DNA of 32,000 nucleotides, taken from NCBI GenBank assembly GCA_024407725.1, contig JAKSVZ010000006.1, positions 12,860 through 44,859 on the forward strand, read 5' to 3'. The position numbers and the translations under genes were made by a program. The notes under the pieces are model-generated. The model saw only the letters and a list, made by a program, of their open reading frames with translations. It had not been told where the DNA came from and made no database searches. Source of the stretch: Opitutales bacterium (lineage in GTDB: Bacteria; Verrucomicrobiota; Verrucomicrobiia; Opitutales; UBA9783). Shown piece after piece: positions 9,739-32,000 of the stretch. Positions within the stretch are counted from its first letter, which is position 1. Each line of letters opens with the position of its first letter.

Positions 9739-9955
9739 AAAAATGTTATTTTGGAAAATTTATTTTTAAATGATAAACAAGCCGTGCAAAGCATTTATCT
9801 TAAAAGTCGTTTTCTTCTAGATAATTGAAGTAGATACAAGGATAATCTAATAGTACGTGATAGATGCACAATATATGGATTTATCATCTCGCTTCAGATT
9901 CCAGTAAGTTGAAAAAGCGCATTTTTCAAATCCTTCAATAACAAAGAGCAGGCAT

Positions 9956-10016
9956 AATTAATCAAAAACCCCAGAGGATGTCAAGCCAATTCTGGAGCGA
10001 TAAGACGGTGTTTTCC
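9956..10016 (+). repeat. Copy B of the ~61-nt diverged direct repeat (core at 9980-9995)
   Basis: Same 16-nt perfect core, 462 nt downstream of copy A. It is immediately followed by, and overlaps, a hairpin ggtgttt-N7-aaacacc at 10007-10027. Confidence 0.6.
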
Positions 10017-10048
10017 TTGTAAACACCCAGCCACCATTCAACTTTATT

Positions 10049-11040
10049 TCAGCTTAAATCCCGAACAGCAGCACGTGACAAGCGGTCATTAATCGCTTTC
10101 CCTATACCGGAATCTGGCGCCTTTTCCATCCAAATAGATTGCCACTGTTGGTTATCCAAGCGTTGCAAGCAATCAAACAATGAGGCAGCCACTTCCGACA
10201 AATCCCTCTTGGGACTCAAAACAAACTCATTGGACGCCAAAGGACGGCACGGTGGATATAAAAACACATGCGCAGCACCCACTTCAAAAGTCTTTTGGAG
10301 CTCAATCGGCGCCTGAAATTGCTCTAAATGGCGCACTAAATACAGCAGGGTTTTCGGGCTATAATGGCGTTTATAAAGTCCTGGAGACAAATGCACTCCA
10401 TTAACGGGTACGGACGAAAGCGTTTGGATAGGACGCTCCAAAAACGCCTCCAATGCCTCTTGGGTGATGGGTCCTTGGCGCAACAAAGTAGGTTGTTCTT
10501 CCGATACCAAAGAAAGAATGGTTGATTCCAACCCAAAGGAACACGGACCTCCATCGAGTATGTAGGCCACTACATCCCCCATTCCTTGCGCAACATGCTG
10601 AGCCGATGTAGGGCTAACCTGCTGAAAACGGTTAGCGCTCGGGGCCACCAAGGGTTCTCCCATTAACTCAATAACTGCTCGAAATAAAGAACCTGATGGG
10701 CAACGCACCGCCACTGACGGTTGACCTGCCGTTACGCAAGCTGGCACACAGGCTTTTTTTTTAACACCAAGGTCAATGGACCGGGCCAAAAATGCTTTAC
10801 CAAACGCAACACCAAAGGGGTAACCTCAGCCACCAACCGTAACTGTTCCACGCCTAATACGTGAACAATCAATGGATTTTCTTGAGGACGCTGCTTGAGC
10901 GTATAAATTTTCTTAATCGTATCAACCGCAGATAAAGGGGCGGCTAACCCATAAACGGTTTCGGTTGGCAATGCTACCGGTTCTCCTTTGGACAACCACG
11001 CAGCTGCTTCTTTAGGACTTACCCCAACCTGCGCCCGCAT
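10049..11040 (-). pseudogene. tsaC: L-threonylcarbamoyladenylate synthase Sua5/TsaC(YwlC)-type, reading frame broken at an A9 run
   Basis: Two adjacent ORFs in different frames together make one Sua5. The 102-aa N-terminal part (11040-10732) contains ALPTETVYGLAA, KQRPQENPLIVHV and FWPGPLTLVLKKK. The C-terminal part (through 10049) contains VTAGQPSVAVRCP, PLVAPSANRF and the Sua5 C-terminal domain (GIGKAINDRLSRAA). The frames switch inside T9 on the plus strand (10754-10762), which is A9 in the gene sense. A7 or A10 would restore LVLKK(K)ACVPACVTAG. Confidence 0.7.
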
Positions 11041-12760: not shown

Positions 12761-14935
12761 ATGACCGTTAGCATTTATCAATTAGCTCATCAACTGCATA
12801 AGGATATTAAAAGTGTCCGCTTATTGATTAAACAGCACGGTATTGCACTACCAGATACGGCTTCTACCCTATCGGATACCGACGCAAATGCGTTATTGAA
12901 GAAGGTACAAAGCAATACTCAATCAGCTCCTGTTGCTTCTCCTGCGCTCAAAAAACCTTTAATGGGGAGCGCTCCTGTACGCATTGCCTCCCCTAAAAAC
13001 CTAGGGGGTTCTCAATCCATAACCGCCTTAAATGCGTTTAAGAAAAGCTTTGCGCCGGCTGCACCCATCGCTGCTCGCCCCGCACCCATAACTGCTCCAA
13101 AAGCTGTTACAAAGCCCGAAAACACACCAAGCGCAGCAGGTTCGGTTACAAAGGATGCTGTCAAAACAGACCAAAATCGGGTCATAAAGCCCCCAATTAC
13201 CTTAACCGAGCTGGCCAACCTATTAGGGGTTAAGCCCTTTACCCTCATTAGGGATTTAATGGATCAAAAGATTTTTGCATCCATGGGGCAGGTTTTGGAC
13301 GAAAATGGCTTAAAAGTACTAGCAGATAAGTATAACTTTACGGTTGAAACCAAACGCCGTTCTCAGGAACGCAAAGTTCAACCAGCTCCTGTTAAACCCA
13401 AAGTTGAACCGTCCGAGCACTTAGAGCCACGCCCACCGATTGTGTGCATTTTAGGCCACGTCGACCACGGGAAAACTACCCTGTTAGATACATTGCGTAA
13501 AGCCAATGTGGCCGCCAAAGAAGCGGGTGGAATCACCCAACACATTGGAGCTTATCAAGTAGAGGTAGAAGGGAAAAAGATTACCTTCCTCGATACTCCG
13601 GGACATGCCGTATTTTCAAACATCCGCCAACGCGGAGCAACCGTAACCGACATCATCATTTTGGTTGTTGCGGCTGATGATGGCTTTATGCCTCAAACCA
13701 AAGAATCCCTGCAATTGGCGCAAAAAGAAAACGTACCTGTGGTGGTTGCCATCAACAAAATGGATGTTAAGGGCGCCAACATTGATCGCATTAAACAACA
13801 GATGCAAGCAAACGGGATTGCCCCCGAAGAATGGGGAGGCGATACGCTATGCACTGAAATTTCGGCTCTCAAAGGAACCAACCTTGATAAATTACTCCAG
13901 TTGGTGTTATTGCAGGCTGAAATGATGGAGTTAAAAGCCAATCCTAAAGGAACACCGGAAGGCGTGGTAGTTGAATCCCGCATGGAAGAAGGTCAAGGGA
14001 TTGTAACAACCGCCATTATTACCAGCGGAACGTTAAAGGCAGGAGATGCGCTTGTTAGCGGCGCTCATGTCTGCAAAGTTCGCTGTTTGTTGGATGAACA
14101 TGGCAAGCGCATGGCTCAAGCTACACCGGCAACACCCGTTCAAATTACGGGATGGGTCACCATGCCTTCTGCAGGCTGTACCTTCCGAGGCTCTAAAAAC
14201 GAAAAAGAAGCCCGTAAGGAAGCAGAAGCATGCGAGCGCGAACTGAAACAGAACCAAAGCAACAATGTTCATAAAATTTCCAGCGTTGAGGATTTGATGG
14301 CTGCTATGGAAACCCAGCAGCAAAAAACTCTGAAAATCCTGCTTCGTTCCGACGTCCATGGTAGTTTAGAGGCGCTAGAAGCCTGCCTAAAGAGCATTCA
14401 TAGCGATAAGGTGGCGCTCAATATTATCGATACGCGCGTCGGACAAATTACGCTCAACGATATTCAAACCGCCCATGCGGGTAAAGCGATTATCGTTGGA
14501 TTCAACACTAAACCAGCGAATGGCGTGCAAGCCGCAGCTAAGCAAAAGGGTGTGCGCATGATTCAGCATAACATTATCTACGAACTCATTGAGCAGGTAA
14601 GAAATGCCATGCGTGAATTGCTGGATCCTGAATGGAGCGAAACCAAGCTTGGTTCAGCCGAAATCCGTAAGGTTATTACTTTATCTAAAGGTACGGTTGC
14701 CGGATGTATGGTGGTATCGGGACAAATCGTTCGCGATGCGTTTGTCCGCTTGATTCGCAAAGGAAAAATCATTACCGAAACCAAAGCTTATACCCTCAAA
14801 CACTTCAAGGATTATGTGGCAGAAGTAAAATCCGGAAACGAATGTGGAATTGGATTGGAAGACGCTGCATCCGATTGCCAAGAGGGTGATTTGATTGAAT
14901 GCTACAAGAAGGTTTCAAGTTTGCCGGAATTATGA
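12761..14935 (+). CDS. infB: Translation initiation factor IF-2
   Basis: 724-aa ORF with the GTPase motifs [17 protein letters not shown] and NKMD, plus IF-2 domains II-IV. The N-terminal region is Ala/Pro-rich and variable. Confidence 0.95.
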
Positions 14936-15330
14936 CCAATTTGCGCATCATTCGGGTGAATGAGTTACTCAAACGCGTTATTGGCGATTATTTGCTTAAG
15001 CATTACGCATCGGAAGCCATGAGTATCACTATTACACACGTGACCGCTGCGGATAACTTAAAAGTCGCTGATGTCTATTTTTCCGTCTATCAAATAGAGC
15101 AGAAAGAACAAGCACTTAAGTTGCTCATCAAACTCCGCAAAAACATACAGGACGCTATTGGGAAAGAAGTACGGATGAAACAAACCCCACGGCTTTCGTT
15201 CGTATGGGATAAGGAGCTGCAAAAAGCTCACCGTACCTTTGCCTTGTTACAAGAAGTTGACCAGTCATTGCCCGAAAGCGCTCCCACAAGTTTTGGAAGT
15301 ACCCTACCCCCTCCTAATGAACTCCGCTAA
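14932..15330 (+). CDS. rbfA: Ribosome-binding factor A
   Basis: RbfA-like sequence [21 protein letters not shown]...ITITHVTAADNLKVADVYFSV...PRLSFVWD. I prefer the ATG at 14932, which overlaps the infB stop in an ATGA junction. The track ORF begins at an in-frame ATG at 14899. Confidence 0.85.
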   Translation: MTNLRIIRVNELLKRVIGDYLLKHYASEAMSITITHVTAADNLKVADVYFSVYQIEQKEQALKLLIKLRKNIQDAIGKEVRMKQTPRLSFVWDKELQKAHRTFALLQEVDQSLPESAPTSFGSTLPPPNELR

Positions 15331-16762: not shown

Positions 16763-18704
16763 TGTAACCGCTTCTGTCGAAGAAGCACTTCATAACCACC
16801 AACTCTCCTCATCGGCCGCTCAATTTATTTGCCAATTTCTCGCTATGCCTGACTTGCCCAATTGGGCATCAGATAGCTTGCATGAGCTCATTGAACAGCA
16901 GCAATGGCATGAGTTAAACGAACGCTTTTTCAAAATCATTGCGTTTGGAACGGCTGGAATGCGCGGACGCACCATTGGTTCGGTCACTACAAGCGCAGAA
17001 AAATCAGGCAATTCCTACCAGCATGCAGCCGTTGGGACTTACTGCATCAACGATTTCAACGTTATACGGGCGACCCTTGGACTATTTGCTTACTGCAAAC
17101 AGCACTTTAGCGATTATCCGCGCCCCCCATCCTTGGTTATTTCTTACGATTCACGCTATTTTTCAAAACACTTTTGTGAACTCACCGCATCAACTTGGTT
17201 AAAATCAGGCGGAATCGTTTATATTTTTAATGGCCCACGATCAACGCCCCAATTAAGTTTTTCGGTACGTTATCTAAGAGCCACAGCGGGCGTTATGATT
17301 ACCGCTAGCCACAATCCCTTTTACGATAACGGCTATAAGGTGTATTTGGAGGACGGCGCGCAAATCAATGGTTCCTGTGCCGATGGCATTATCAAGTCAA
17401 TCGAGCAAGTATCTTACGAAGCCACTCCTCCATTTTTAACACCCTCTATCGATGGCTGTTTCTATGTCCCCGAAAGCGTTGAACAAGCGTATCGCGAAAC
17501 CTGCAAAAGCGTCCTATTAGACACCCAATTGTTGGCGGACAAAAGCTGCGCTCCCAAGGTGGTTTATACGCCCTTGCACGGCACTGGCTCGGTTTGCATC
17601 ATGCCCCTCATGAAAGAGCTAAGCGGGTCATTTCAAATCGTTGAATCGCAAAAAGAATTCAACGGCGCATTCCCTAACCTTACCACGCTTGACCCAAGCA
17701 ACCCAAGCGCATTGGCCGTTGCGTTGGAGGAAGCCAAAAAAAGCCAAGCGGATGGTATTATTGCAACCGATCCGGACGGGGATCGCATGGCAATGATGCT
17801 GAAGGATGCGCAAGGGCAATGGCAACTGTTAAGCGGCAATACCATTGCAGTGCTATTGACTGAATACCGTTTAACCACGCTCATGAAATTAGGGCGTATT
17901 CCTCCCAAAGGCGCCAAGCTTGCGATTATCAAATCCTTTGTAACCACCCCCCTACTCGATGCTATTGCAAACACCAATGGAATCCGTTGCATCAATACCC
18001 ACACGGGCTTTAAGTGGATTGGGGGTAAATTGCTCCGTTATGAGCAGCAATGGTTGCAGCATGAACTGGCTACGCAAGGTATTCAGGTGGATTATATGCG
18101 ATGCACGCCGGAAGCTCGATTTAACAACTTACTGCGCCACTCAACTGCTCTCCTGTTGTCAGCCGAAGAAAGCAGTGGATTTTTGGCCAATGATGCGGTA
18201 CGGGATAAGGATGGCAATGCAGCTACCTTAATGGCTTACGAACTGATTGCGTTCTTCAAGCGCGAAGGTATCGCCTTTTCCGATTACCTCAATACTATTT
18301 ATCGAAAATACGGTTATTTCAAAGAGGCGCTGTTAAGCCACACGTTTGAAGGATCAGAGGGTATGGCAAGCATTCAAGCGTTGATGCGCTCTTATCGGCA
18401 ACAACCTCCGGCTACCATTGCACAACAGGCGGTTAAAGAAAGTATTGATTATCTCAACGAGCACAATGCAAACGATGAAGATGGCGAACGGGTTCCCAAA
18501 GCCGACTTTATCCGATTCCGCCTAGCCAATAACTTTGAAGTAGCTGTGCGCCCCAGCGGAACTGAACCAAAAATCAAATGGTATCTGTTCGGGACAGCTC
18601 CGGTTAACAATGGGGATGTAAGCGCTGCCCAACAAAGCGTTAAGGAGCAACTTGAGGCGATTAAAACCGCAATCGAACAAAACATCCAAAGGCGTTTGGG
18701 ATAA
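16749..18704 (+). CDS. Alpha-D-phosphohexomutase (phosphoglucomutase/phosphomannomutase, PgcA/PGM2-like)
   Basis: 651-aa ORF with FGTAGMRG, the active-site Ser loop TASHNPFYDNGYKVY, the metal loop ATDPDGDRMAM, the sugar loop SAEESSGF and the phosphate loop RPSGTEPKIK. Confidence 0.85.
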   Translation: MTHLNVTASVEEALHNHQLSSSAAQFICQFLAMPDLPNWASDSLHELIEQQQWHELNERFFKIIAFGTAGMRGRTIGSVTTSAEKSGNSYQHAAVGTYCINDFNVIRATLGLFAYCKQHFSDYPRPPSLVISYDSRYFSKHFCELTASTWLKSGGIVYIFNGPRSTPQLSFSVRYLRATAGVMITASHNPFYDNGYKVYLEDGAQINGSCADGIIKSIEQVSYEATPPFLTPSIDGCFYVPESVEQAYRETCKSVLLDTQLLADKSCAPKVVYTPLHGTGSVCIMPLMKELSGSFQIVESQKEFNGAFPNLTTLDPSNPSALAVALEEAKKSQADGIIATDPDGDRMAMMLKDAQGQWQLLSGNTIAVLLTEYRLTTLMKLGRIPPKGAKLAIIKSFVTTPLLDAIANTNGIRCINTHTGFKWIGGKLLRYEQQWLQHELATQGIQVDYMRCTPEARFNNLLRHSTALLLSAEESSGFLANDAVRDKDGNAATLMAYELIAFFKREGIAFSDYLNTIYRKYGYFKEALLSHTFEGSEGMASIQALMRSYRQQPPATIAQQAVKESIDYLNEHNANDEDGERVPKADFIRFRLANNFEVAVRPSGTEPKIKWYLFGTAPVNNGDVSAAQQSVKEQLEAIKTAIEQNIQRRLG

Positions 18705-21415: not shown

Positions 21416-21491
<76 letters not shown>

Positions 21492-22385: not shown

Positions 22386-22445
22386 CTTATAAGGAAACGC
22401 CTTATAAGGAAACGCCTTATAAGGAAACGCCTTATAAGGAAATGA
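22386..22445 (+). repeat. 15-bp tandem repeat x4, unit CTTATAAGGAAA(C/T)G(C/A), ending on the start codon of OMP paralog 1
   Basis: Three perfect units of CTTATAAGGAAACGC at 22386-22430, then CTTATAAGGAAATGA at 22431-22445, whose ATG (22442) is the gene start. Each unit carries the 8-bp palindrome CTTATAAG and a GGA/SD-like AAGGAA. Confidence 0.95.
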
Positions 22446-23404
22446 CTAAAAGAGTAAGCCTATTATTAGCTCTAAGCATTGCTTTAGGAATCCACACCCC
22501 CTGTTATGGTTTGTACGTCATGGTACGGTCGGGGTTCGGAGAGTTAAAAGCCGACAAACAAATCGGTACTTTTCGTCAAACCAATGGTACATTGCCAACG
22601 TGGCATGAAGCAGCTGTAGGTGCTAATGATAACAATTTGCACTTTGACGATTTTCCATCTTCGTCTTTAGTTCGCAGTAGCAACTGTACTAGTGGTAAAT
22701 TGGAATATAAGAATCATCATAACCTATCGGTTGCTTTGGGTGGACGCTTCGATGTTTTTGATATCGGCGCCTTAGGAATTGAACTCGAAATCCTAGGCGG
22801 TTATGCCAATTTCAAAAATAAAACGCGGGATTTCGTTGACTGTAGAAAAGAGTTCAATCAGCCTCAGAACCTAGATTGGAATGACTTGCTCGTAATGAGG
22901 CGTCCAGATTTCCTCATGATTAAGTATCAAAAAATCGGTGTCATGAATCTCGCACAAATCAGACCGATGTACCTATCAAATCAACGGATTGCAGGAGTAC
23001 AGGCCAATTTCTATTGGGAACAGTATATCTTGGATTGGTTATCCGCTGGAATCGGCGGCGGTATCGGGGGCGCTTATATTGCCACCAAGATGAAAACCTA
23101 TGAAACTTGGAGAAGGTTATGGATTTATCGAGATAGACGCGTGCCCCCTGGCAATCACTACTGTTGGGATGCTGTATTCGGTCTTGATTGGAAACAGCGC
23201 ACAAAGTATGCTCATAACCTAGCTCTGTTGTACAATCTTACCCTGTTTGTACGCGCTGAAAAGTTCGAGACACTCTTTGAAGTCGGATTTAGACATATCG
23301 GATTGCATGAGGTGAATGATAACAAAATCTATGGGCATTCAATCAAAAACCTCGCTAACCTTCATTCCGACCAAATCTATTTGGGCGTAGGAAGAACGTT
23401 CTAA
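22442..23404 (+). CDS. Putative beta-barrel outer-membrane protein, paralog 1 of a variable OMP family
   Basis: 320-aa ORF with a signal peptide (MTKRVSLLLALSIALGIHTPCYG). Alternating amphipathic segments are present, along with Gly-rich strands (GIGGGIGGAY) and the canonical OMP C-terminus ...IYLGVGRTF with a terminal Phe. It is a paralog of 31043..31996. No named family could be assigned from memory. Confidence 0.6.
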   Translation: MTKRVSLLLALSIALGIHTPCYGLYVMVRSGFGELKADKQIGTFRQTNGTLPTWHEAAVGANDNNLHFDDFPSSSLVRSSNCTSGKLEYKNHHNLSVALGGRFDVFDIGALGIELEILGGYANFKNKTRDFVDCRKEFNQPQNLDWNDLLVMRRPDFLMIKYQKIGVMNLAQIRPMYLSNQRIAGVQANFYWEQYILDWLSAGIGGGIGGAYIATKMKTYETWRRLWIYRDRRVPPGNHYCWDAVFGLDWKQRTKYAHNLALLYNLTLFVRAEKFETLFEVGFRHIGLHEVNDNKIYGHSIKNLANLHSDQIYLGVGRTF

Positions 23405-23413: not shown

Positions 23414-24562
23414 TTATTGTAATTGCGAGAGGATATAATCCGCTCCAGCGCGTGCTGATTGATTTGGATGATACACATGGCGCTGGCGTAAGGATTGGAG
23501 GGTTTGTTTCCAATCATCCGCGTGGTTGATTAAATCCTGCAAAACCGGTACTAGCTGAGGAATAGCATTGAGGGTAATGGGGATGCCAATGGAGCGTCGT
23601 AGTTGCAACTCAATCGGTTCCAATTCCAAAGCGCGCCAGTTGGGATTAAATTCCTTAGGAGGCGTTTCGATAAAGATTACTGGGCGTTCAGTGCCAAAAG
23701 CGTATTCGAATGCAATTCCTGAGCGGTCGGTAATACACACTGCGGCTTCGTACACATTATCTTCCGTCAACAGGTGATCTTCCCAAATAAAATGAGGCAG
23801 AGCTTGTACCTTCTGTTTAATTTGTTGCGCGCGATCAGGACAGCGTTTTAAAAACTCCGGATGTGGGCGAACAACAACGCGATAATCCGTGTTTTTCAAA
23901 GCATCGATGAGGGCATCAATTCCCTGTTCCATTAAATTCCCTGGACCCCAAGTAGGAGCAACCAACACGGTTGTTTGATTGGGAAATTTCGGGGTGTAAT
24001 GTTGAAACTTTTGGTACACAACATCGATACGCGGATAACCCACCGGTAGCAATTGTTTTGCGGGCAAGGCATACACCTGTTCCCGCTTCTTGATTTCTTC
24101 AGTATGATGAGGGCCTACGCAAAAAATGGCATCATAAGCATCAAAAGCGGTTTCGTTGTATTGCAAATGAGTACTGGAAAAAGCGTGAAATAGATAGACG
24201 TAGGATTTTACTTTCTTGGATTTCCGAAACGCGCGTACCTGCGTACTGTTTAAATCGGGTGCAGTCCAAACAAAACACGTTGCATCGATGCGATCCATAA
24301 CCGATTTCAAACAAAGGTCAAAATAGAAGGGATGTAAGCGCTCGTGGTGATGCGTTAAAATCGGATCCTTTGGGTCATTGGTAAGGTAACTGAACTGGAT
24401 GGATGGATTTTTGAGCAGCTCGGTAATAAATGGCTCAAACGTTTGATAATAGATAGCGCTTTCGGAAAAAAACACCAATTGGCGGCAAGGTGCGAAGTCT
24501 TTGCTAAAAAAACGATTGTATGCCTTAAATTCTCCCCATAGACTTAGGATGTGTTGGAACAT
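23414..24562 (-). CDS. TagB/TagF-like CDP-alcohol (glycerophospho)transferase family protein
   Basis: Roughly 382 aa. The pattern resembles the Glyphos_transf family: YVYLFHAFSSTHLQY...YDAIFCVGPHHTEEI, TVLVAPTWGPG (compare ILYAPTWR), VVVRPHPE, and CITDRSGIAFEYAFGTERPVIF (compare ITDYSSxxFDFxxLxKPIIF). I prefer the ATG at 24562; the track start is TTG 24571. Motif recognition only. Confidence 0.5.
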   Translation of the reverse strand: MFQHILSLWGEFKAYNRFFSKDFAPCRQLVFFSESAIYYQTFEPFITELLKNPSIQFSYLTNDPKDPILTHHHERLHPFYFDLCLKSVMDRIDATCFVWTAPDLNSTQVRAFRKSKKVKSYVYLFHAFSSTHLQYNETAFDAYDAIFCVGPHHTEEIKKREQVYALPAKQLLPVGYPRIDVVYQKFQHYTPKFPNQTTVLVAPTWGPGNLMEQGIDALIDALKNTDYRVVVRPHPEFLKRCPDRAQQIKQKVQALPHFIWEDHLLTEDNVYEAAVCITDRSGIAFEYAFGTERPVIFIETPPKEFNPNWRALELEPIELQLRRSIGIPITLNAIPQLVPVLQDLINHADDWKQTLQSLRQRHVYHPNQSARAGADYILSQLQ

Positions 24563-27538
24563 AATTATCAATGTATTATCTTGGGAGCAGGGCGGTCAAA
24601 ACAATTAACCCAAAACCCCGCGCTGGTTAATATTGATCAGGATCAATGTACGTTGGATTGGTTGCTTAAAACCGTAGGGGCTAATGCTTCCAGCAGTATT
24701 TTTGTCGGCGGTTATACCTTTGATGCGATTGCACAACATTATCCGCAGTTGCGTTTCGTTTGTAATGCTCAATGGGCGAAAACTGGCTGTGAAACCTCGC
24801 TGTATCTATCTCAATTTGACCCAAAATTGCCTGCATTTATATGCTATGGGGATATCTTGGTGCGCACTGCATTGGTTGAATCGGTTCTGAAAGCAGCCGA
24901 AGCGGGTGATAACGATGGGGTTATTGCCTTAGATTCCCATACACAGCTATTGGACACCAAAGAAAACTATGAATGCTTCGAAGGAAGCTTAAAAGGGCAA
25001 CGCGGGCAGTATCCCTTTGTTGGATGTGTGTATTTAAAGCCAAAAGCATTGGAATTTTTGCAGAAAAACCAATGTTTTAGCAACAATGGTAAGGCTTACC
25101 GTTTGTCCGACTTGCTGCGTTTTTGCCAAAATAGCTTGCGATTGGCTTGCGTGGATGCGCATGGATTGTGGGCTGAAATCTTACGCCCCATCGATATTAC
25201 CAAGTTTATCCTCACCACAAAATCCGAAACACTCCAAACCTTGCAGCGTCATATTACCCAAGCACGGATGTTGGATCAGGTCCATTTTTCGGTTAAGGAG
25301 TGGCGTGAGCAACCTTCTAGCCTCGTTTCATCTATCCTGCAAAAATTCCAACGGCAACCGTTGGTGGTGCGCAGTAGCTCATTACAGGAAGATAACTTTA
25401 CGCAGGCCAATGCGGGTAAATTCGAAAGTATTTTAAACGTTCAACCGGAAGATGCCGCTATTAAAGCAGCCGTTGATACCGTTATTCAATCCTATGGAAC
25501 GCCGAAGGATGCGGATCAGGTGTTGGTTCAACCCATGCTGCCGAACGTTAAATTGAGCGGGGTTGTTTTTACCCGTAGCCTGCAGCATAGTGCCCCTTAC
25601 TACATTGTGAATTATGATGTGGCAAGCACCGAATCCGTGACCAGTGGTCAAAGTACGCAGGATGTTATCTTTTATCATTGGAAACATGCACCCATTCCGC
25701 CTCATGCGCCTGATTTTTATCCGCGCTTGCAGGCAGCAATTCAAGAAATTGAGCGCCTAACCCAATGGGATGCGTTGGATATTGAGTTCGCGGTTACTCA
25801 GCAAAACGAACTGTATTTGTTCCAAGTACGGCCTTTGGTTGCGCGCCACCTGCAGGAAATTAGCGACGAACAGCTTCAGCAGTGCTTGGATGAGGCTGCA
25901 GATCGCTTCGATTCATTACAAATCCCTCAGGAAGCTATTGCGGGGCAACATACGATTTTCGGGGTTATGCCGGATTGGAACCCAGCTGAAATGATTGGAA
26001 CGAAACCAAATGCGTTAGCGGCTTCCCTCTATCGTACGCTGATCACAGACTCCATTTGGGCGCAACAAAGGGCGGAATTTGGCTATAAAGACGTACGTCC
26101 TTATCCCTTGATGGTAAGCTTTGCGGGTCACCCGTATATTGATGTGCGCGCCAGTATCCATTCGTTTATCCCCAAGTCCGTTCCTACCGAAACAACCGGC
26201 AAGTTGGTCACATTTTTCGTTAACCGTTTAAAACAGCATCCTGAATGGCATGATAAGTTGGAATTTAAGGTGATGCCGACGTGCGACACCTGCGATTTTG
26301 ATGAACGTTGGCACGCGTTGTTAACCCAAGAAGCAGGGTTGTCGGTAGCCGAATATCAACAGTATCGCTCGGCTTTGCACAAAATAACCCATGCTGCTTT
26401 GATTCAATGTGAATCCTACTATCAAGCCATTAAGGCGATAGAAGAGCGTTTTGCACGTATTAAAGCGTCCAAGCAAGCGGATAGCGATAAAATTTACACC
26501 TTGGTTGAAACAGCCAAAGTGGGTACGCTCAACTTTTCCCATTTAGCCCGATGCGGCTTTATTGCGCGTTCTTTGCTGCAGGCCTATGAAGCGCAAGGGA
26601 TTATCACCAAGGAAGAAAGTCAGTCGCTTGTTGACGCTATTCAAACGATTGCGGGACAATTTTTTAAGGATACACAGGCTGCGATTGCGGGTAAAGGTTC
26701 TAAGCAAGCCTGTTTGGATACCTATGGGCATTTGCGCCCCGGAACCTACGATATTACATCGCCAACCTACCGTTCTGATCCTGAAAAATACTTGTTTGTA
26801 AAGAGCACAGTGGAATTGAGTCAGCGTTCCAAAGCAACCTTTAGTTATACCCAGTTGGAATCCGCTTTACAAAAGGACTGGGGAATTTCACTTACCGCAT
26901 TTCGGCAATTTTTACAGTGTGCAATTGCCGGCCGCGAATATTCAAAGTTCATCTTTACGCGCTACAGCTCGCATATTTTGGATTTAATTCAAGCAATCGG
27001 TGCTCGCTATGGGTTTTCAGCGAAAGAATTAGAGCATGTACCTATTACGGTTTTTATGCAACTGCGCGGGGGGATTGATGCGTCAAAAACCTTGAAAGCT
27101 TTACTGCAGGCAACCATCGAACAAGGCGCGTTGGATTACTGTTTCGCTCAGGCCATAGAATTGCCTCCGTTGATTACCAACAAGAGCGATTTTTATGCCT
27201 TTTTTGTGCCTAAATCCCTGCCGAATTTCATTGGAAATCAAAAGGCCGAAGCACCCCTGATTTACCTCAAGAATTCTGATCAGGCGGATGGTGCAGCTTT
27301 GCGCGATAAGATTGTTTTGATTGAAAAAGCGGATCCTGGGTTCGACTGGATTCTCAATTATGCGATTGCTGGGTTGATTACCGCTTATGGAGGTCCCAAT
27401 TCCCATATGGCCATCCGTTCGGCAGAATGTCACTTGCCGGCAGCAATTGGAATTGGAGAAGCGTTGTTTGACTCGCTCAAAACAGCTCAGTTGGTTCACT
27501 TAGATTGCGCCAATCACACGTTAAAACGCATCCGATAA
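24551..27538 (+). CDS. Fusion protein: N-terminal nucleotidyltransferase domain plus a PEP-utilizing-enzyme-type kinase (ATP-grasp PPDK_N-like domain and C-terminal phosphohistidine swivel domain); Cj1418 / rifampin-phosphotransferase-like architecture
   Basis: 995-aa ORF.
- Residues ~1-220: CIILGAGRSKQL (a GxGxR NTP loop) and ICYGDIL, paralogous to the ITYGDII of the downstream 28184 gene.
- Residues ~225-460: TTKSETLQTLQ, PLVVRSSSLQEDNFTQANAGKFESILNV (compare PpsA/PPDK VAVRSSATAEDLPxASFAGQ) and LDIEFAV...LYLFQVRP.
- C-terminus: VLIEKADPGFDWILNYAIAGLITAYGGPNSHMAIRSAECHLPAAIG, the PEP-utilizers mobile domain with the catalytic His.
- No PEP/pyruvate-binding TIM-barrel domain is present.
- Start is GTG 24551 or TTG 24554. 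Confidence 0.7.
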   Translation: MLEHNYQCIILGAGRSKQLTQNPALVNIDQDQCTLDWLLKTVGANASSSIFVGGYTFDAIAQHYPQLRFVCNAQWAKTGCETSLYLSQFDPKLPAFICYGDILVRTALVESVLKAAEAGDNDGVIALDSHTQLLDTKENYECFEGSLKGQRGQYPFVGCVYLKPKALEFLQKNQCFSNNGKAYRLSDLLRFCQNSLRLACVDAHGLWAEILRPIDITKFILTTKSETLQTLQRHITQARMLDQVHFSVKEWREQPSSLVSSILQKFQRQPLVVRSSSLQEDNFTQANAGKFESILNVQPEDAAIKAAVDTVIQSYGTPKDADQVLVQPMLPNVKLSGVVFTRSLQHSAPYYIVNYDVASTESVTSGQSTQDVIFYHWKHAPIPPHAPDFYPRLQAAIQEIERLTQWDALDIEFAVTQQNELYLFQVRPLVARHLQEISDEQLQQCLDEAADRFDSLQIPQEAIAGQHTIFGVMPDWNPAEMIGTKPNALAASLYRTLITDSIWAQQRAEFGYKDVRPYPLMVSFAGHPYIDVRASIHSFIPKSVPTETTGKLVTFFVNRLKQHPEWHDKLEFKVMPTCDTCDFDERWHALLTQEAGLSVAEYQQYRSALHKITHAALIQCESYYQAIKAIEERFARIKASKQADSDKIYTLVETAKVGTLNFSHLARCGFIARSLLQAYEAQGIITKEESQSLVDAIQTIAGQFFKDTQAAIAGKGSKQACLDTYGHLRPGTYDITSPTYRSDPEKYLFVKSTVELSQRSKATFSYTQLESALQKDWGISLTAFRQFLQCAIAGREYSKFIFTRYSSHILDLIQAIGARYGFSAKELEHVPITVFMQLRGGIDASKTLKALLQATIEQGALDYCFAQAIELPPLITNKSDFYAFFVPKSLPNFIGNQKAEAPLIYLKNSDQADGAALRDKIVLIEKADPGFDWILNYAIAGLITAYGGPNSHMAIRSAECHLPAAIGIGEALFDSLKTAQLVHLDCANHTLKRIR

Positions 27539-27543
27539 CGATT

Positions 27544-28197
27544 ATGAATCAAGCAGCAAACGCCTCATCACACGACCTAAAATGGTTGAAAATCGGGCTA
27601 TCTCAGCGCACCATTCAGGCAGCGGAAGCTCAGGGAGTGGTTAGTCCATCCGATGAGCTGCATGATGAATTGAGTCAGCAATGGACTACCTTGTTAAACG
27701 CACGCCATTTATTGACCCTGCCTATTCCCAACCAAGTTCCGTTGCAACCGTGGCTATCGGCGGTGAATTTAGACGGAATTTTGTTGAGTGGAGGCAATGA
27801 CCACGCTACGCGTAGTACCTGCGAAACCGCTTGTATCGAATACAGTATGCAGCATCGCTTACCCCTCATGGGCATTTGCCATGGTTTCCAATGCATCGCA
27901 CGTTATTTCGGAGCCCAATTGATTCCCATTCAAGGGCATGTTGGATGTACGCATCCGGTTCAAATTCATGACAATCCGTATATCCCAGCCGGTACCCAAA
28001 TCGTTAATTCCTTCCATACGCTAACGATAGCAACGCTTCCGGATGGGTTTAAGCCGCTTGCAACCGATCTTGATGGCCATTTGGAGGCAATTTATCACGC
28101 AACGCTACCGATAGTCGCTTTTATATGGCATCCGGAACGTCCTCCGTTTGATGCCAAGTGGAACGCTTGGGCTTATTCTTTTTATGCAAAACACTAA
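27544..28197 (+). CDS. Class-I glutamine amidotransferase-like / peptidase C26 gamma-glutamyl hydrolase family protein (Cj1417-like)
   Basis: LKIGLSQRT at the N-terminus, DGILLSGGND, the nucleophile elbow LMGICHGFQ and WHPER (a Cys-His triad context). The ATG at 27544 is 5 nt after the upstream stop; the track start at 27505 overlaps the upstream gene. Confidence 0.75.
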   Translation: MNQAANASSHDLKWLKIGLSQRTIQAAEAQGVVSPSDELHDELSQQWTTLLNARHLLTLPIPNQVPLQPWLSAVNLDGILLSGGNDHATRSTCETACIEYSMQHRLPLMGICHGFQCIARYFGAQLIPIQGHVGCTHPVQIHDNPYIPAGTQIVNSFHTLTIATLPDGFKPLATDLDGHLEAIYHATLPIVAFIWHPERPPFDAKWNAWAYSFYAKH

Positions 28198-28915
28198 GGT
28201 TTTTATTTTGTGTGCTGGCGAAGGTAAACGCTTACGTCCGTATACTGAGCATCAACCCAAATGCATGGTTCCTTACCAAGGGAAGCCGCTTGTGGAGTAT
28301 CAATTGGATTTGTTTGCTCAACAGGGGTTTCGGGATATTGTTCTCATCGGTGGCTATCAATATACGCTATTGCCAAAACAAGCCACGGTGGTGGTTAATC
28401 CCGATTATGCGAAAACCAATATGGTTTATAGCCTGTTTTGCGCTCAGGAACAGATGGATGAATCTTGCGATTGGCTCATTACCTACGGGGATATCATTTA
28501 TCATGCGTCGGTATTGCAAGCGATGCTTAACGCCAAGGAATCCATTGCGGTTGCAACCGATGTTGATTGGCAGCGTTATTGGGAACGGCGTATGGAAGAT
28601 CCGTTGAAGGATGCGGAAACTTTTCGCTGGGATACGCAGACCCACCGCATTGCTGAAATCGGTAAAAAACCAAAAACCTTGGCGGATATCCAAGGCCAGT
28701 ACATTGGGTTTATTAAGGTAGCTGCGCAACATACCAAAACCTTTAAGCAAGCCTATCAGCAGTTTTTAAGCGTTCACTCCAAAACCGCTTACATGACGGA
28801 TTTTTTGCAGTTTTTAATCGACCAAAACATTCCGCTGTATGGCGTACCCATTCATAATCATTGGGCTGAATTTGATACGGTTCAGGATCTATCGCTAACA
28901 TTGGATTGGCTATGA
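28184..28915 (+). CDS. LicC-like nucleotidyltransferase (putative cytidylyltransferase for a phospho-alcohol or phospho-amide; Cj1416-like)
   Basis: KVFILCAGEGKRLRPYTEHQPKCMVPYQGKPLVEYQLDLFAQQGFRDIVLIGGY closely parallels the LicC N-terminus ([53 protein letters not shown], from memory), followed by YGDII. The ATG at 28184 gives a 14-nt overlap with the upstream gene. Confidence 0.75.
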   Translation: MQNTKVFILCAGEGKRLRPYTEHQPKCMVPYQGKPLVEYQLDLFAQQGFRDIVLIGGYQYTLLPKQATVVVNPDYAKTNMVYSLFCAQEQMDESCDWLITYGDIIYHASVLQAMLNAKESIAVATDVDWQRYWERRMEDPLKDAETFRWDTQTHRIAEIGKKPKTLADIQGQYIGFIKVAAQHTKTFKQAYQQFLSVHSKTAYMTDFLQFLIDQNIPLYGVPIHNHWAEFDTVQDLSLTLDWL

Positions 28916-28970: not shown

Positions 28971-31046
28971 ATGAGGAACATTACTAAGAAAGCAACAACC
29001 GTCCATGGTAAAACAGCGAAGAAAACTTTAAAGCCGTCCGCTAAAAAACCCTGCATCCGTAGTAAATCCACCAAGCAGGTAAGTGCTGCCAAATTAACTT
29101 CTGTTATCGATTGCCATACTGCTTGGAAATTAGCCAATCAGGCTGATTTGCTCGCCTTCCAACAAGGGCACTGCAATCGCATTTATAACGTACTTGGTTC
29201 TCATCCCGCCACTGAAGAAGGGAAAGCAGGCTATCACTTTGCGGTATGGGCGCCGAATGCAAAATCTGTGTCTGTTGTAGGGGATTTTAATCAATGGGAT
29301 GCGAAGAAAAATCCCATGTACCTACACAATCTTTTTGGGGTATGGGAAGTATTTGTTCCTGATGTTCAAGTAGGACAAAAATACAAATATGCCGTTGTCG
29401 GATATAACCAACAATTGCAGTTGAAAGCCGATCCGTACGGTAATTGGGGCGAACATACCGATTCACACGCGTCCATCCTATGCCCCGCCTTAAACCGATA
29501 CGTGTGGAACGACAATGCGTGGATGCAAAAGCGCGCTAAACATAATTGCCAAGAACAGCCTTTGTCGATCTATGAGCTGCACATTGATTCTTGGCGCCAC
29601 AATGCAAAAGGCAATCCGCTCACTTATCGAGAATTGGCTCAGCAACTCGTTCTGTATTTAAAAGCAACAGAATTTACGCATGTTGAATTGATGCCGATCA
29701 TGGAGCACCCCTTTACCGATTCTTGGGGCTATCAAATCACTGGGTTTTATGCACCCACCTCGCGTTATGGGACACCAGAAGACTTTCAGTATTTAATCGA
29801 TACGCTGCATCAAGCCAATATTGGCGTCATTCTTGATTGGGTACCGGGTCACTTCCCAACCGACGATTTTGGTTTAGCGCGCTTCGATGGTACCGCTTTG
29901 TATGAACATGCCGATCCGCGCCAAGGCATCCATCCTGATTGGGGAACCTACATCTTTAATTATGGACGCAACGAGGTACGTAATTTCCTCATCAGCAACG
30001 CTCTGTTTTGGATTGAGCAATTCCATATCGATGGCCTACGTTTGGATGCGGTTGCTTCCATGCTTTACTTGGATTATTCTCGAAAACCTAATGCGTGGAT
30101 TCCCAACCAATACGGCGGTAAGGAGAATATCGAAGCGATTAATTTCTTACGCGAATTCAACAACATTATCCATTCGTCCTATCCAGGTATTTTATCAATC
30201 GCTGAAGAATCAACTTCCTTTGGGCGCGTTTCCCAACCAACTCAATCGTACGGCTTGGGCTTCGATTTCAAATGGAATATGGGTTGGATGCACGATGTCT
30301 CCAATTACTGCAAATTAGACCCGATTTTCCGCAAATATCATCACAACAAAATGACCTTTGCTATGCTCTATCAGCGCTCAGAGCATTTCATCAACGTCTT
30401 TTCACACGATGAAGTGGTGTACGGTAAGGCTTCGATGGTACAGAAAATGGGTTCGCCGTATTTAAGCGATAAACTGAGTACCTTGCGCGCTCTTTATACC
30501 TTTATGTGGGGATGGCCGGGCAAAAAAACGCTCTTTATGGGCAATGAATTCGCTCAGCTCGATGAATGGGATTTCCACAAAGCTTTGTCTTGGGAGTTAT
30601 TGGAAAAACCAGAACATCAAGGAATGTTGCGCTTAATCTTCGATTTAAATCACCTCTACCGCACGCTGCGTTTTTGGCACGAAGGAGATATGTACGAAGG
30701 TAGTTTTTCTTGGATCAACCCAGAAGATTGCGATAACAGTGTATTTTCATTTATACGCAAAAGCGCTTCCTCAACCCATACGCTCTTGTTTATCTCGAAC
30801 TTTACTCCCATTGAGCACGCGAATTACGAATGCGGGGTTCCTTTTGCCGGTACTTGGAATGAACTGCTTAACTCCGATAGTACATCCTACGGCGGACTTA
30901 ATCGTGGAAATTTAGGCTCTGTAACTGCTGTCAAGCAGGAACGCGACCTACAACCCTGCACAATTAGTTTATATCTACCTCCGCTGAGCACTATTATCTT
31001 AGAGTTTAAACGTACTCATACAAAAGCATGCGATAAAAGCGCTTAG
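28971..31046 (+). CDS. glgB: 1,4-alpha-glucan branching enzyme GlgB (GH13)
   Basis: Sequence features: YHFAVWAPNAKSVSVVGDFNQWD, THVELMPIMEHPFTDSWGYQITGFYAP, DWVPGHFP, GLRLDAVASMLY, AEESTSF, FSHDEVV. I prefer the ATG at 28971; the track start is TTG 28923. There is a ~55-aa Lys/Thr/Ser-rich N-terminal extension, unless an internal TTG is the true start. Confidence 0.9.
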   Translation: MRNITKKATTVHGKTAKKTLKPSAKKPCIRSKSTKQVSAAKLTSVIDCHTAWKLANQADLLAFQQGHCNRIYNVLGSHPATEEGKAGYHFAVWAPNAKSVSVVGDFNQWDAKKNPMYLHNLFGVWEVFVPDVQVGQKYKYAVVGYNQQLQLKADPYGNWGEHTDSHASILCPALNRYVWNDNAWMQKRAKHNCQEQPLSIYELHIDSWRHNAKGNPLTYRELAQQLVLYLKATEFTHVELMPIMEHPFTDSWGYQITGFYAPTSRYGTPEDFQYLIDTLHQANIGVILDWVPGHFPTDDFGLARFDGTALYEHADPRQGIHPDWGTYIFNYGRNEVRNFLISNALFWIEQFHIDGLRLDAVASMLYLDYSRKPNAWIPNQYGGKENIEAINFLREFNNIIHSSYPGILSIAEESTSFGRVSQPTQSYGLGFDFKWNMGWMHDVSNYCKLDPIFRKYHHNKMTFAMLYQRSEHFINVFSHDEVVYGKASMVQKMGSPYLSDKLSTLRALYTFMWGWPGKKTLFMGNEFAQLDEWDFHKALSWELLEKPEHQGMLRLIFDLNHLYRTLRFWHEGDMYEGSFSWINPEDCDNSVFSFIRKSASSTHTLLFISNFTPIEHANYECGVPFAGTWNELLNSDSTSYGGLNRGNLGSVTAVKQERDLQPCTISLYLPPLSTIILEFKRTHTKACDKSA

Positions 31047-31996
31047 AACGTTCTTCCTACGCCCAAATAGATTTGATCGGAATGCATATTCGCCAACTTC
31101 GGAATTTCATACCCGTAGCATTTAGCACCAAACATCTGATGCAAGCCGATATGGCGATAGCCGACCTCAAATAACGTTTCAAATTTTTCTGCGCGTACAA
31201 ACAGCGTAAAGTTATAGAGTAACGAGCCGGTATGGACGTACTTACGACGTTGGATGAATTCCCCTGCATGTCCCCAATAATACTGTCCTTGTGGTATTCC
31301 ATCTTCCCACTCCAAATATTGATAGTATTCCCGAGTGGTAAATTTGGTACAGACATAAGCGCCGCCAATCCCCCCCCCGATACCAACGGATAGGTAATCA
31401 AGTAGATAGTGTTCCCAATAGATATTGAACTGAGCACCTGCAATCCGTTGGTTCTTAAGCCACATGAAAGTCATGTTACGGCTAATTTCTTCTGCTGCGA
31501 TATTCAAGGTACGGTCTCGCATTAAGATAAGATCAGGAGTCTCAACGATGTATGTATCTATCGTTGATAGCTTAGTTGTACGCTTTGAGGGGGTATAAGC
31601 ACCTAGGATTTCTACTTCCAATCCCAATGCGCCAATATCAAATACATCAATTCGTCCGCCCAACGCCACCGATAGGTTTTTATGATCCTTGTATTTGAAT
31701 TGACCAGAAGTACAGTCGGTATTTCGACTCAAAATGCTAGCACCATCAGTACCCAGATGTAGTACGGGAGGATTAAACACGTCTCCGTCTTCAAACCACG
31801 TCATTTCTCCGTTTTTTTTCTCGAACTTTCCGACATCATCGGCTTTTAACTCTCCAAACCCCGATCGTACCATGACGTACAGACCATAACAAGGGGTGTG
31901 GATTCCTAAAGCAATGCTTAGGGCTAATAATAAACTTATTCTTTTAGTCATTTCCTTATAAGTCATTTCCTTATAAGTCATTTCCTTATAAGTCAT
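31043..31996 (-). CDS. Putative beta-barrel outer-membrane protein, paralog 2, with an N-terminal (MTYKE)n repeat encoded by a 15-bp tandem repeat
   Basis: 317-aa ORF reaching the window edge. After (MTYKE)x3, the sequence MTKRISLLLALSIALGIHTPCYGLYVMVRSGFGELKAD is 37/38 identical to paralog 1, and the C-terminus is the same (...HSDQIYLGVGRTF). The signal-peptide-proximal ATG is at 31951. Further in-frame ATGs lie at 31966, 31981 and 31996, and the repeat may continue beyond 32000. Confidence 0.6.
   Translation of the reverse strand: MTYKEMTYKEMTYKEMTKRISLLLALSIALGIHTPCYGLYVMVRSGFGELKADDVGKFEKKNGEMTWFEDGDVFNPPVLHLGTDGASILSRNTDCTSGQFKYKDHKNLSVALGGRIDVFDIGALGLEVEILGAYTPSKRTTKLSTIDTYIVETPDLILMRDRTLNIAAEEISRNMTFMWLKNQRIAGAQFNIYWEHYLLDYLSVGIGGGIGGAYVCTKFTTREYYQYLEWEDGIPQGQYYWGHAGEFIQRRKYVHTGSLLYNFTLFVRAEKFETLFEVGYRHIGLHQMFGAKCYGYEIPKLANMHSDQIYLGVGRTF
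31370..31378. repeat. G9 homopolymer (C9 on the plus strand) inside the coding sequence of OMP paralog 2
   Basis: Read directly. The gene-sense sequence ATC GGG GGG GGG ATT encodes the IGGGI of GIGGGIGGAY. Paralog 1 encodes the same peptide with an interrupted sequence (ATC GGC GGC GGT ATC). Confidence 0.9.
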
Positions 31997-32000
31997 TTCC
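31948..32000 (-). repeat. 15-bp tandem repeat (at least 3.5 units visible, truncated by the window end), gene-sense unit CTTATAAGGAAATGA
   Basis: Plus-strand units TCATTTCCTTATAAG at 31948-31962, 31963-31977 and 31978-31992, plus a partial unit at 31993-32000. Every unit contains an in-frame ATG. Confidence 0.95.

Follow-up and report, generated by a model that had tools for sequence, protein, structure and literature searches.

The question raised by the locus described here is what a compact module of four genes makes and onto what its product would be placed. The window, by which the whole 32-kb stretch of DNA that was analysed is meant, is part of a 44.9-kb contig of an Opitutales metagenome-assembled genome (MAG), and the module consists of a phosphoenolpyruvate (PEP)-utilizing-type kinase, a class-I amidotransferase-fold hydrolase and a LicC-like nucleotidyltransferase (NTase), with a divergent TagF-like gene beside this trio. 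A first reading made without any database search (hereafter the sequence-only reading) had compared the trio with the O-methyl phosphoramidate (MeOPN) genes of Campylobacter jejuni and had proposed that a phospho-amide activated with cytidine diphosphate (CDP) is installed on a surface glycan by the TagF-like enzyme. The chemistry of the Campylobacter phosphoramidate pathway was reportedly established by Taylor and Raushel in 2017-2019. Glutamine and ATP yield N-phosphoglutamine, which together with CTP gives CDP-glutamine, and hydrolysis of the latter leads to cytidine diphosphoramidate (PMC6429109), while the final transfer of the group to sugars was unsolved even in C. jejuni as of 2025 (PMC12409886). 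In the literature searched, the pathway is described for Campylobacter only, the sole exception being a passing note, derived from structure prediction, of a four-gene Cj1418/1417/1416-like cluster with two NTases in the Cobalt Borg (bioRxiv 10.1101/2024.11.05.622173). Family profiles, motifs and gene order support the view that the Opitutales module represents a widespread, uncharacterised variant of the Campylobacter-type system, which is fused at the kinase, partnered by a TagF-like enzyme and devoid of Cj1415. On balance it seems probable that the trio makes cytidine diphosphoramidate and that the TagF-like enzyme moves the phosphoramidate onto a glycan hydroxyl; homology and the conserved order of the genes support the earlier proposal.

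A Compact Four-Gene Module in an Opitutales Genome

The four open reading frames (ORFs) of the sequence-only reading are present with the coordinates, strands and domains that it had given them. The kinase gene (24551-27538, plus strand) encodes 995 aa from a GTG start with AGGA just before it, and can be divided into an NTase-like N-terminal domain (aa 1-214, 24551-25192) and the kinase core (25193-27538). The stop of the kinase gene at 27538 is followed after a gap of 5 nt by the ATG of the hydrolase gene at 27544 (27544-28197, plus strand, 217 aa), and the ATG of the NTase gene at 28184 (28184-28915, plus strand, 243 aa) overlaps the end of the hydrolase gene, whose stop lies at 28197, by 14 nt; gap and overlap had both been claimed and were both recovered by direct reading of the DNA. 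The TagF-like gene is encoded on the minus strand (23414-24562) and yields 382 aa from the ATG at 24562, an alternative TTG start at 24571 giving the longest frame. The kinase GTG at 24551 and this ATG face each other on opposite strands, so that the two genes overlap head-to-head by 12 nt (24551-24562), and the starts of the kinase and TagF-like genes overlap in the same manner in a 60% relative (L003). Since the starts overlap, each promoter must sit within the opposite gene. A scan for promoters and terminators gave fewer sites than are obtained with shuffled sequence and carries no information.

The exact kinase protein is deposited as NCBI MCQ2955948.1, named "PEP-utilizing enzyme", from a MAG labelled Opitutales bacterium, and the Chlamydiota, which the sequence-only reading had considered as the host group, are hence the wrong taxon. 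Among the 120 best matches on which each protein homolog search was based, the nearest named kinase relatives are encoded in Opitutales and Puniceicoccales MAGs of rumen, human gut and termite gut.

The Kinase Core and Its N-Terminal Domain

In the sequence-only reading, the kinase was described as an enzyme with an ATP-grasp domain and a phosphohistidine swivel domain that lacks a PEP/pyruvate-binding barrel, which is confirmed by the Pfam matches and by the structural model. PPDK_N is matched at aa 227-375 and the PEP-utilizers swivel domain at aa 919-988, and no PEP/pyruvate-barrel domain was found in the kinase by the Pfam scan. The NCBIfam model NF004508/PRK05849, which we take to be the family that includes Cj1418, is matched over aa 215-993 (profile positions 5-787 of 789) with 849.3 bits at a cutoff of 501 bits, whereas no more than 63 bits are obtained with the PpsA models and 18.7 bits with the rifamycin phosphotransferase model, the cutoff of which is 999 bits. 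The kinase therefore sides with the Cj1418-type family rather than with PpsA/PPDK or the antibiotic phosphotransferases, and full-length homologs 40% identical to it carry the JGI label "glutamine kinase". The ATP-grasp domain spans approximately aa 225-470, the helical substrate domain 480-870 and the phosphohistidine swivel domain 880-995. The catalytic His952 (nt 27404-27406) lies within GGPNSHMAIR, and the histidine and its GG-NSHMAIR-E motif are unchanged in 16 of 16 sequences at 39-60% identity. An AlphaFold (AF2) model of the full kinase, with a predicted local distance difference test (pLDDT) score of 80, consists of an alpha/beta N-terminal domain, the ATP-grasp domain, a long all-helical central domain and the swivel domain. 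Its best match in the PDB is rifampin phosphotransferase (5HV1/5FBS; Foldseek, E down to 3e-20 over approximately 900 columns), not PpsA/PPDK; by sequence, no solved structure was matched for the kinase or the hydrolase family. Taken together, assignment of the kinase core to the Cj1418-type family, as a putative L-glutamine kinase, is supported by profile, motif and predicted fold.

The residues preceding the core had been read as an extra NTase domain fused to the kinase, and the domain does exist, but its signature loop has been lost and it is probably non-catalytic. Residues 8-128 match Pfam NTP_transf_3 with 26.4 bits, just below the gathering cutoff of 27 bits, and the fold of the domain in the kinase model matches the cytidylyltransferases 2XME and 6PD1. 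When a profile of 54 N-terminal domains was compared by hhalign with a profile of 67 stand-alone NTases, a probability of 100% and an E-value of 1.6e-38 over 203 columns were obtained, hence the N-terminal domain is a paralog of the partner NTase. Precisely the G-x-G-x-R-L loop is hit by a deletion of five residues in the N-terminal domains, which also fail to conserve the signature residues Arg and Lys. The domain is therefore a degenerate paralog and probably not a second catalyst.

A Cj1417-Like Hydrolase and a LicC-Like Nucleotidyltransferase

The second protein of the trio belongs to the GATase (75 bits) and Peptidase_C26 (56 bits) families of Pfam, and the Cys and His that the sequence-only reading had found intact are located in GICHGFQ, with Cys112 at nt 27877-27879, and in WHPER at nt 28126-28140. 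The Cys and His/Glu motifs of the Cys-His-Glu triad are kept in at least 90% of 64 members of the hydrolase family. The best NCBIfam match is NF045546, the gamma-glutamyl-CDP-amidate hydrolase of the Cj1417 family, with 95.7 bits (equivalog cutoff 250 bits), followed by GMP synthase subunit A with 53.6 bits and PuuD with 17.4 bits, so that the protein does not join PuuD. The same ranking of families is obtained for the hydrolases of five other loci, where NF045546 is again best, with 106-188 bits. The protein is accordingly described here as a putative gamma-glutamyl-CDP-amidate hydrolase of the Cj1417 type.

The LicC-like character of the third protein was likewise borne out, as it matches NTP_transf_3 with 63 bits and also the NTP_transferase family, and its best solved relative is LicC (1JYK, E 9e-16). 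The NTase signature LCAGEGKRLRPYTEHQPKCMV is intact at nt 28208-28270, and at least 80% of the stand-alone NTases keep the pattern iILAAG.G.RLrP.T...PKCmV. No NCBIfam model for Cj1416 is among the family matches of the NTases. When ORFs were called in all loci retrieved in the survey described below and grouped into clusters with BLAST, the NTase of the window fell into one cluster (69 loci) with NTases of loci that encode a kinase without the N-terminal domain, at 34-45% identity. These plain loci also carry APS-kinase-like (adenosine 5'-phosphosulfate kinase) and methyltransferase genes and thereby represent full Cj1415-1420-like sets. Since they reproduce the Campylobacter gene set, the NTase of the window can be matched to Cj1416, and the stand-alone NTase is considered a putative phosphoglutamine cytidylyltransferase.

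The Divergent Gene and the TagF Family

Enzymes of the TagF family act on CDP-X donors, the substituted phosphate of which is passed on to a hydroxyl while cytidine monophosphate (CMP) is released; the donor of TagF itself is CDP-glycerol. The divergent gene product had been read as a TagB/TagF-like CDP-alcohol phosphotransferase, and its membership in the TagF family is upheld by Pfam, fold and motifs. The protein matches Glyphos_transf (PF04464) with 39.4 bits at a gathering cutoff of 22.1 bits, and its AF2 model (pLDDT 94.4) finds TagF (3L7I-M) as the best folds in Foldseek, with E approximately 1e-12 and a template modelling score of approximately 0.6, and then the TagF-like capsule polymerases 8QOY and 8A0C/M, before generic enzymes of the glycosyltransferase B-type (GT-B) fold. 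A profile of 35 TagF-like homologs aligns with TarL (8VA1), with APTW, RPHP and TDRSGIAFEYAF matching; the PTW, HP and (T/S)D-S...EY motifs are common to both, and the alignment covers TDRS..EYA. The window protein carries these motifs as APTWG, RPHPE and ITDRSGIAFEYAF, and the histidine of the HP motif, His236, is invariant in the family, whose members are uniform with approximately 380 aa. By its modelled structure, the divergent gene product is a true TagF-fold enzyme. Among the ORFs of at least 120 aa, which were used for all scans of the window for synthase, kinase and methyltransferase genes, no CTP_transf_like, IspD, TagD-, TarI- or TarJ-type gene for a CDP-glycerol or CDP-ribitol synthase was found.

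Distribution and Two Architectures of the Module

A search of 185,579 species genomes with an alignment of the kinase identified relatives in at least 583 of them. The loci studied are the best 79-80 of these, with Campylobacter not among them, and the 79 best are found in Verrucomicrobiota, Alpha-, Beta- and Gammaproteobacteria, Bdellovibrionota, Chloroflexota, Bacteroidota, Cyanobacteria, Spirochaetota, Acidobacteriota and Firmicutes as well as in one Helicobacteraceae MAG. Kinase, hydrolase and NTase form one cluster each, present in 82, 66 and 69 loci, respectively. The order kinase, hydrolase, NTase, in which the sequence-only reading had seen a likeness to Campylobacter, is kept in most of the 80 loci and across more than 10 phyla. 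The complete block of four genes, including the TagF-like gene, is adjacent in a 94% relative, is accompanied by a methyltransferase and KdsA in a 60% Opitutales MAG, and is embedded in a large polysaccharide cluster in a 55% relative; in Pseudomonas chlororaphis (CP027744, approximately 37.7-43.3 kb) all four genes are co-directional, and the block is also found in Vibrio and many other genomes. Recurrence in relatives at 94% and 55-60% as well as in Pseudomonas and Vibrio means that the arrangement is not due to chance.

The loci can be divided into two architectures, namely fused loci, with window-like kinases of approximately 1000 aa, and plain loci, with kinases of approximately 780 aa that align from residue 215 of the window kinase onwards; most of the retrieved loci are fused. 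Features within 6 kb were counted in loci with at least 5 kb on each side, fragmentary loci having been removed, which left 37 fused and 11 plain loci, and the Fisher tests applied to them ignore phylogenetic kinship. The hydrolase is present in 35 of the 37 fused loci, where it lies directly downstream of the kinase, and the stand-alone NTase adjoins the trio in 34 of 37. A TagF-like gene is found in 21 of the 37 fused and 2 of the 11 plain loci (p = 0.039), the fused loci with such a neighbour coming from unrelated phyla and showing it in differing orientations. Conversely, an APS-kinase-like gene (PF01583, NF004041) is present in 4 of 37 fused and 6 of 11 plain loci (p = 0.005), and an MT5-type methyltransferase in none of the 37 fused and 8 of the 11 plain loci (p = 4e-7). 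In 7 of the 37 fused loci, though not in the window, the neighbour of the TagF-like gene is a methyltransferase of another type, MT8. In agreement with the sequence-only reading, no APS-kinase-like (Cj1415-type) gene was found in the 32-kb window, nor is there one within 10 kb on either side of the module in the 94% relative, and the window is also devoid of an S-adenosylmethionine (SAM)-dependent methyltransferase of the Cj1419/Cj1420 type. In its lack of Cj1415, the window follows the usual pattern of the fused architecture.

In plain loci, the place of the transferase is taken by a family without Pfam match (c32), by sulfotransferase-domain proteins or occasionally by a TagF-like protein. 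The plain locus L057 has the order TagF-like, kinase, methyltransferase, methyltransferase, hydrolase, NTase, APS-kinase, and on plasmid p6 of Azospirillum lipoferum the order is APS-kinase, methyltransferase, kinase, hydrolase, NTase, followed by sulfotransferase-domain proteins. The c32 family bears a weak likeness to sulfotransferases (64% over 34 columns), and the idea that it is a remote TagF-like family was dismissed at an hhalign probability of 0.6%. Sulfotransferase-domain proteins stand beside the trio in L074 (8558-9844), L012 (14494-15423) and L086 (A. lipoferum 4B p6; 14040-15134 and 17625-18272), and loci with such neighbours often hold an APS-kinase-like gene as well. A general split, in which sulfotransferase-like neighbours track the APS-kinase and the donor would resemble either 3'-phosphoadenosine 5'-phosphosulfate (PAPS) or a plain CDP compound, was not significant, with a Fisher p of 1.0 in the sample. 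From the single loci L074 and Azospirillum p6, it is tentatively suggested that in the Campylobacter-type route PAPS-type transferases of the sulfotransferase fold act on the 3'-phospho-CDP-amidate donor.

Two carriers of the fused module have further features of their own. On a plasmid of Vibrio alfacsensis, the RefSeq names of the module are PEP-utilizing enzyme, gamma-glutamyl-GABA hydrolase family, phosphocholine cytidylyltransferase family and CDP-glycerol glycerophosphotransferase family, that is, names of single proteins with no pathway-level name in this annotation, and the module adjoins five glycosyltransferases. In this locus (L085, pYa108; module genes VA249_RS23590-23605), cysD and cysN, encoding sulfate adenylyltransferase, lie immediately upstream of the module and divergent to it (6114-8519), and the five glycosyltransferases and an amidotransferase of the XrtA/PEP-CTERM system follow downstream; it looks like an exopolysaccharide locus on the plasmid of a culturable host, with the module as one of its parts. 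Many fused loci of Proteobacteria contain the module within a larger conserved set, to which a membrane sulfatase-family protein of approximately 700-950 aa, a YidC/Oxa1-like and a formyltransferase-N-like protein and an ORF of 80 aa belong, as seen in P. chlororaphis (L004, CP027744, 7846-18931) and in L017, L021, L024, L030, L035, L043 and L081. The TagF-like proteins, too, bear the JGI label "YidC/Oxa1 family membrane protein insertase". A step in the periplasm or at the membrane may thereby be indicated for the lineages concerned. On some homologs, the Pfam family PF27448 is seen as well. A homolog of the plain-type kinase, with 32% identity over 78% of the query, is encoded at 673-3006 of the phage record MT837632.1, an unannotated 9.5-kb "Bacteriophage sp." contig from human faeces.

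A Predicted Route to a Phosphoramidate-Bearing Glycan

By analogy with Campylobacter, the kinase would convert glutamine and ATP to N-phosphoglutamine, the LicC-like NTase would join phosphoglutamine and CTP to CDP-L-glutamine, and the hydrolase with its Cys-His-Glu triad would take off glutamate to leave cytidine diphosphoramidate (CDP-NH2). The N-terminal domain of the kinase would be non-catalytic and may dock the active NTase or bind a cytidine nucleotide, which could allow the labile N-phosphoglutamine to be handed on directly. The TagF-like enzyme would then take CDP-NH2 as TagF takes CDP-glycerol and as FtaD of Clostridioides difficile takes CDP-N-methylthreonine, and would place the terminal phosphoramidate on a hydroxyl group of a glycan in the cell envelope, releasing CMP. 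Direct use of CDP-NH2 is the most economical reading, because the trio is predicted to make this compound and the TagF family uses CDP-X donors. The 3'-phosphorylation performed by Cj1415 would not be needed in a TagF-like route, and without methylation in this organism the product is predicted to be a bare, unmethylated phosphoramidate. LptD is encoded in the window, and LpxI and KdsA are encoded in relatives, hence the host is considered to make lipopolysaccharide (LPS), and LPS or another envelope glycan is the most likely acceptor.

Alternative Explanations

Several observations weigh against this route. The fused-type loci are known from their genes, and the link to the C. jejuni proteins runs via family profiles and clusters. 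The hydrolase stays below the equivalog cutoff of NF045546; however, all non-Campylobacter hydrolases tested remain under 250 bits, even those from loci with a full Cj1415-1420-like set, so that the model is narrow, and "Cj1417-like" is preferred to equivalog as a description of the protein. The association p-values, from 37 fused and 11 plain loci, are uncorrected for phylogeny, and approximately 43% of the fused loci have no detectable TagF-like gene, with sulfotransferase-like, sulfatase-like or unknown proteins there instead. Four loci (L033, L045, L056 and L057) hold both a TagF-like gene and an APS-kinase, hence TagF-like enzymes may take a 3'-phosphorylated donor in some lineages. Finally, 32 kb of the genome were seen, which leaves room for a Cj1415-like kinase or a methyltransferase in its other parts. 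From the last two points it could be argued that the pathway is the full MeOPN pathway with some of its parts elsewhere in the genome, in which an outside kinase (Cj1415-like or CysC-like) and methyltransferases make a 3'-phosphorylated, O-methylated donor and O-methyl phosphoramidate is installed, be it by the TagF-like enzyme or by a different transferase. The methyltransferases found next to the TagF-like gene in the relatives L003, L005, L006, L008 and L037 and the examination of 32 kb out of a 44.9-kb contig would agree with such a scheme, which is nevertheless rather unlikely, as 33 of the 37 fused loci are without an APS-kinase within 6 kb, MT5-type methyltransferases are missing from all 37, the 94% relative has no such genes within 10 kb on either side, and the characterised TagF-family enzymes take plain CDP-linked donors.

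The remaining alternatives concern the identity of the donor or the partnership itself. CDP-L-glutamine would arise from the kinase and NTase steps, and FtaD demonstrates that TagF-like enzymes can pass phospho-amino acids from CDP-amino acids, so the enzyme of the window might likewise put phosphoglutamine on the glycan, with the hydrolase acting later, on glutamine already attached to the glycan, or regulating the donor pool. We regard this as improbable, because the hydrolase is almost always present (35 of 37 loci), translationally coupled between kinase and NTase, because its closest curated family is a CDP-glutamine hydrolase, and because the protein is small and of cytoplasmic type, its start MNQAANASSHD being unlike a signal peptide. 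A similarly low probability is given to a kinase substrate other than glutamine, that is, another amide, an amine or an alcohol, from which the module would make a different CDP-activated phospho-donor. The full-length NF004508 match far above its cutoff speaks against this, and a strictly co-occurring Cj1417-like glutamine-amide hydrolase makes sense only with a gamma-glutamyl amide carrier, even though the identity to plain-type kinases is 36-39% only, the PEP-utilizer/rifampin phosphotransferase superfamily phosphorylates very diverse substrates, and divergence of the fused lineage is evident from the extra N-terminal domain. That the adjacency is incidental and the TagF-like enzyme, without any relation to the trio, a phosphotransferase of the ordinary kind for CDP-glycerol or CDP-ribitol, as could be read from the RefSeq label "CDP-glycerol glycerophosphotransferase family protein" on such genes, is very improbable: 21 of the 37 fused loci, drawn from unrelated phyla, have the gene beside the trio, with varied orientations, no TagD-, TarI- or TarJ-type gene is found in the window, and the homologs are one uniform family of approximately 380 aa.

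Comparison With Known Systems

Transfer of phosphoramidate from CDP-NH2 by a TagF-like enzyme, the route that is preferred here, would combine features of several known systems. With the C. jejuni MeOPN system (Cj1415-Cj1422), the module shares the three core enzyme families, their order and the presumed intermediate cytidine diphosphoramidate. It differs in that the window lacks the APS-kinase-like Cj1415 and a Cj1419/1420-type methyltransferase, a degenerate NTase-like domain is added to the kinase, the place of the transferase is taken by a TagF-fold protein of approximately 380 aa, and the predicted product is an unmethylated phosphoramidate from a donor that is not 3'-phosphorylated.

The closest precedent for the transfer step is found in C. 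difficile, where the TagF-like FtaD moves a substituted phosphate from CDP-N-methylthreonine onto GlcNAc in vitro (bioRxiv 10.64898/2026.02.12.704994). The FtaABCD system (CD0241-0244) of the flagellin Type A glycan and the b-type system of Pseudomonas aeruginosa follow the same logic of a CDP-activated, amino-acid-derived donor, in that a cytidylyltransferase is paired with TagF-like transfer to a sugar hydroxyl and CMP is released, and in both FtaABCD and the module a small methyltransferase may act on the CDP-donor. In contrast to the module, CDP-(N-methyl)threonine, with a P-O bond, serves there as the donor and flagellin O-GlcNAc as the acceptor, and there is neither a PEP-utilizer-type kinase nor an amidotransferase-like hydrolase. 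The systems of TagD/TagF, TarL and Cps3D/Cps1B likewise pair a cytidylyltransferase with a CDP-X phosphotransferase of the GT-B-like TagF fold that carries the PTW, HP and (T/S)D-S...EY motifs. Compared to these teichoic-acid and capsule polymerases, the protein of the window is much smaller, being a single domain of approximately 380 aa, and comes from a diderm host without a CDP-glycerol or CDP-ribitol synthase gene in the window; it probably transfers once instead of polymerising.

The rifampin phosphotransferase RPH-Lm (5HV1, 5FBS) has the same layout of ATP-grasp, substrate and swivel phosphohistidine domains and also lacks a PEP/pyruvate barrel, but its likeness to the kinase in sequence is negligible (18.7 bits versus a cutoff of 999), its substrate domain differs, and the genomic context here is glycan modification rather than antibiotic resistance. 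The Cobalt Borg cluster also combines a kinase, a hydrolase and two NTase-type proteins outside Campylobacter; it is, however, carried by an extrachromosomal element of archaea, a PEP mutase and not the kinase is the fusion partner of its second NTase, and no TagF-like partner is described. An unmethylated phosphoramide is known from the LPS of Xanthomonas campestris 8004 and Shewanella MR-4. A link between the module and this modification is not supported, as no named Xanthomonas or Shewanella protein is among the 120 best matches of a search with a Lysobacterales kinase.

Genomic Surroundings in the Window

The position of the module next to glgB and between two variable outer-membrane protein (OMP) genes, which the sequence-only reading had pointed out as unusual, is present here but is lineage-specific and not a feature of the system. 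A gene for glgB is found near the module in this lineage and in one 60% relative only (a cluster of five loci), and a promoter-like site lies just upstream of it; glgB is therefore not counted in the system, and a functional link to it as a general feature was discarded. The module and glgB are flanked by two paralogous signal-peptide proteins without Pfam match (22442-23404, plus strand; 31043-31996, minus strand), the genes of which form long inverted repeats (162 nt at 91% and 209 nt at 72%). The 5' end of each has a perfect tandem repeat of 3.7-3.8 copies of 15 nt (22386-22442 and 31946-32000), which in the second gene (31043-31996) is in frame and encodes MTYKE three times. The same pair is found in the 94% relative, and the paralogs could be variable surface proteins or a recombination/inversion cassette.

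Farther from the module, a TLC-type ATP/ADP transporter is encoded at 7286-8791 on the minus strand (PF03219, 459 bits). Such transporters are a hallmark of energy-parasitic and intracellular bacteria and are unusual for Verrucomicrobiota, which suggests a host-associated, perhaps protist-associated, lifestyle; the gene is probably also what led the sequence-only reading to the Chlamydiota. Between this gene and a Sua5/TsaC gene lies an AT-rich stretch of approximately 1.25 kb (8800-10050, GC content approximately 0.33) with no ORF of at least 70 aa and no Rfam match, which contains a tandem repeat of 2.3 copies of 22 nt at 8985-9031. The Sua5/TsaC gene itself (10049-11040, minus strand) is split into two overlapping frames, 10732-11040 with the N-terminal YrdC part and 10049-10789 with the rest and Sua5_C, and appears to be frameshifted, as a pseudogene or through an assembly error. 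A tRNA gene with an Rfam score of 75.5 bits lies at 21416-21488 on the plus strand, and the TTG at 21458 that was called mechanically as the start of a YmdB-like ORF falls within it, hence the real start of this ORF lies farther downstream.

Implications of a Proposed Glycan Phosphoramidation

O-methyl phosphoramidate is regarded in the literature as essentially restricted to Campylobacter, and relatives of the kinase were found here in at least 583 species genomes. It is conceivable, though we would give this broader view somewhat less than even credence, that glycan decoration through P-N bonds is widespread in bacteria and has two routes, namely the Campylobacter route and a hitherto overlooked teichoic-acid-like route, in which a small TagF-fold enzyme acts on CDP-NH2 and the kinase carries a dead NTase copy. 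The chemistry of the TagF family, with its CDP-X donor and release of CMP, provides the fused architecture with a testable transfer step, and culturable, genetically tractable carriers are available in P. chlororaphis and with the V. alfacsensis plasmid. If the reading is true, correct annotations would follow for thousands of genes now named "PEP-utilizing enzyme", "gamma-glutamyl-GABA hydrolase family", "phosphocholine cytidylyltransferase family" or "CDP-glycerol glycerophosphotransferase family", and the TagF-like protein would represent a new enzyme activity, a CDP-amidate:glycan phosphoramidotransferase, the product of which would provide surface epitopes of a new class, with a bearing on recognition by phages and by the immune system.

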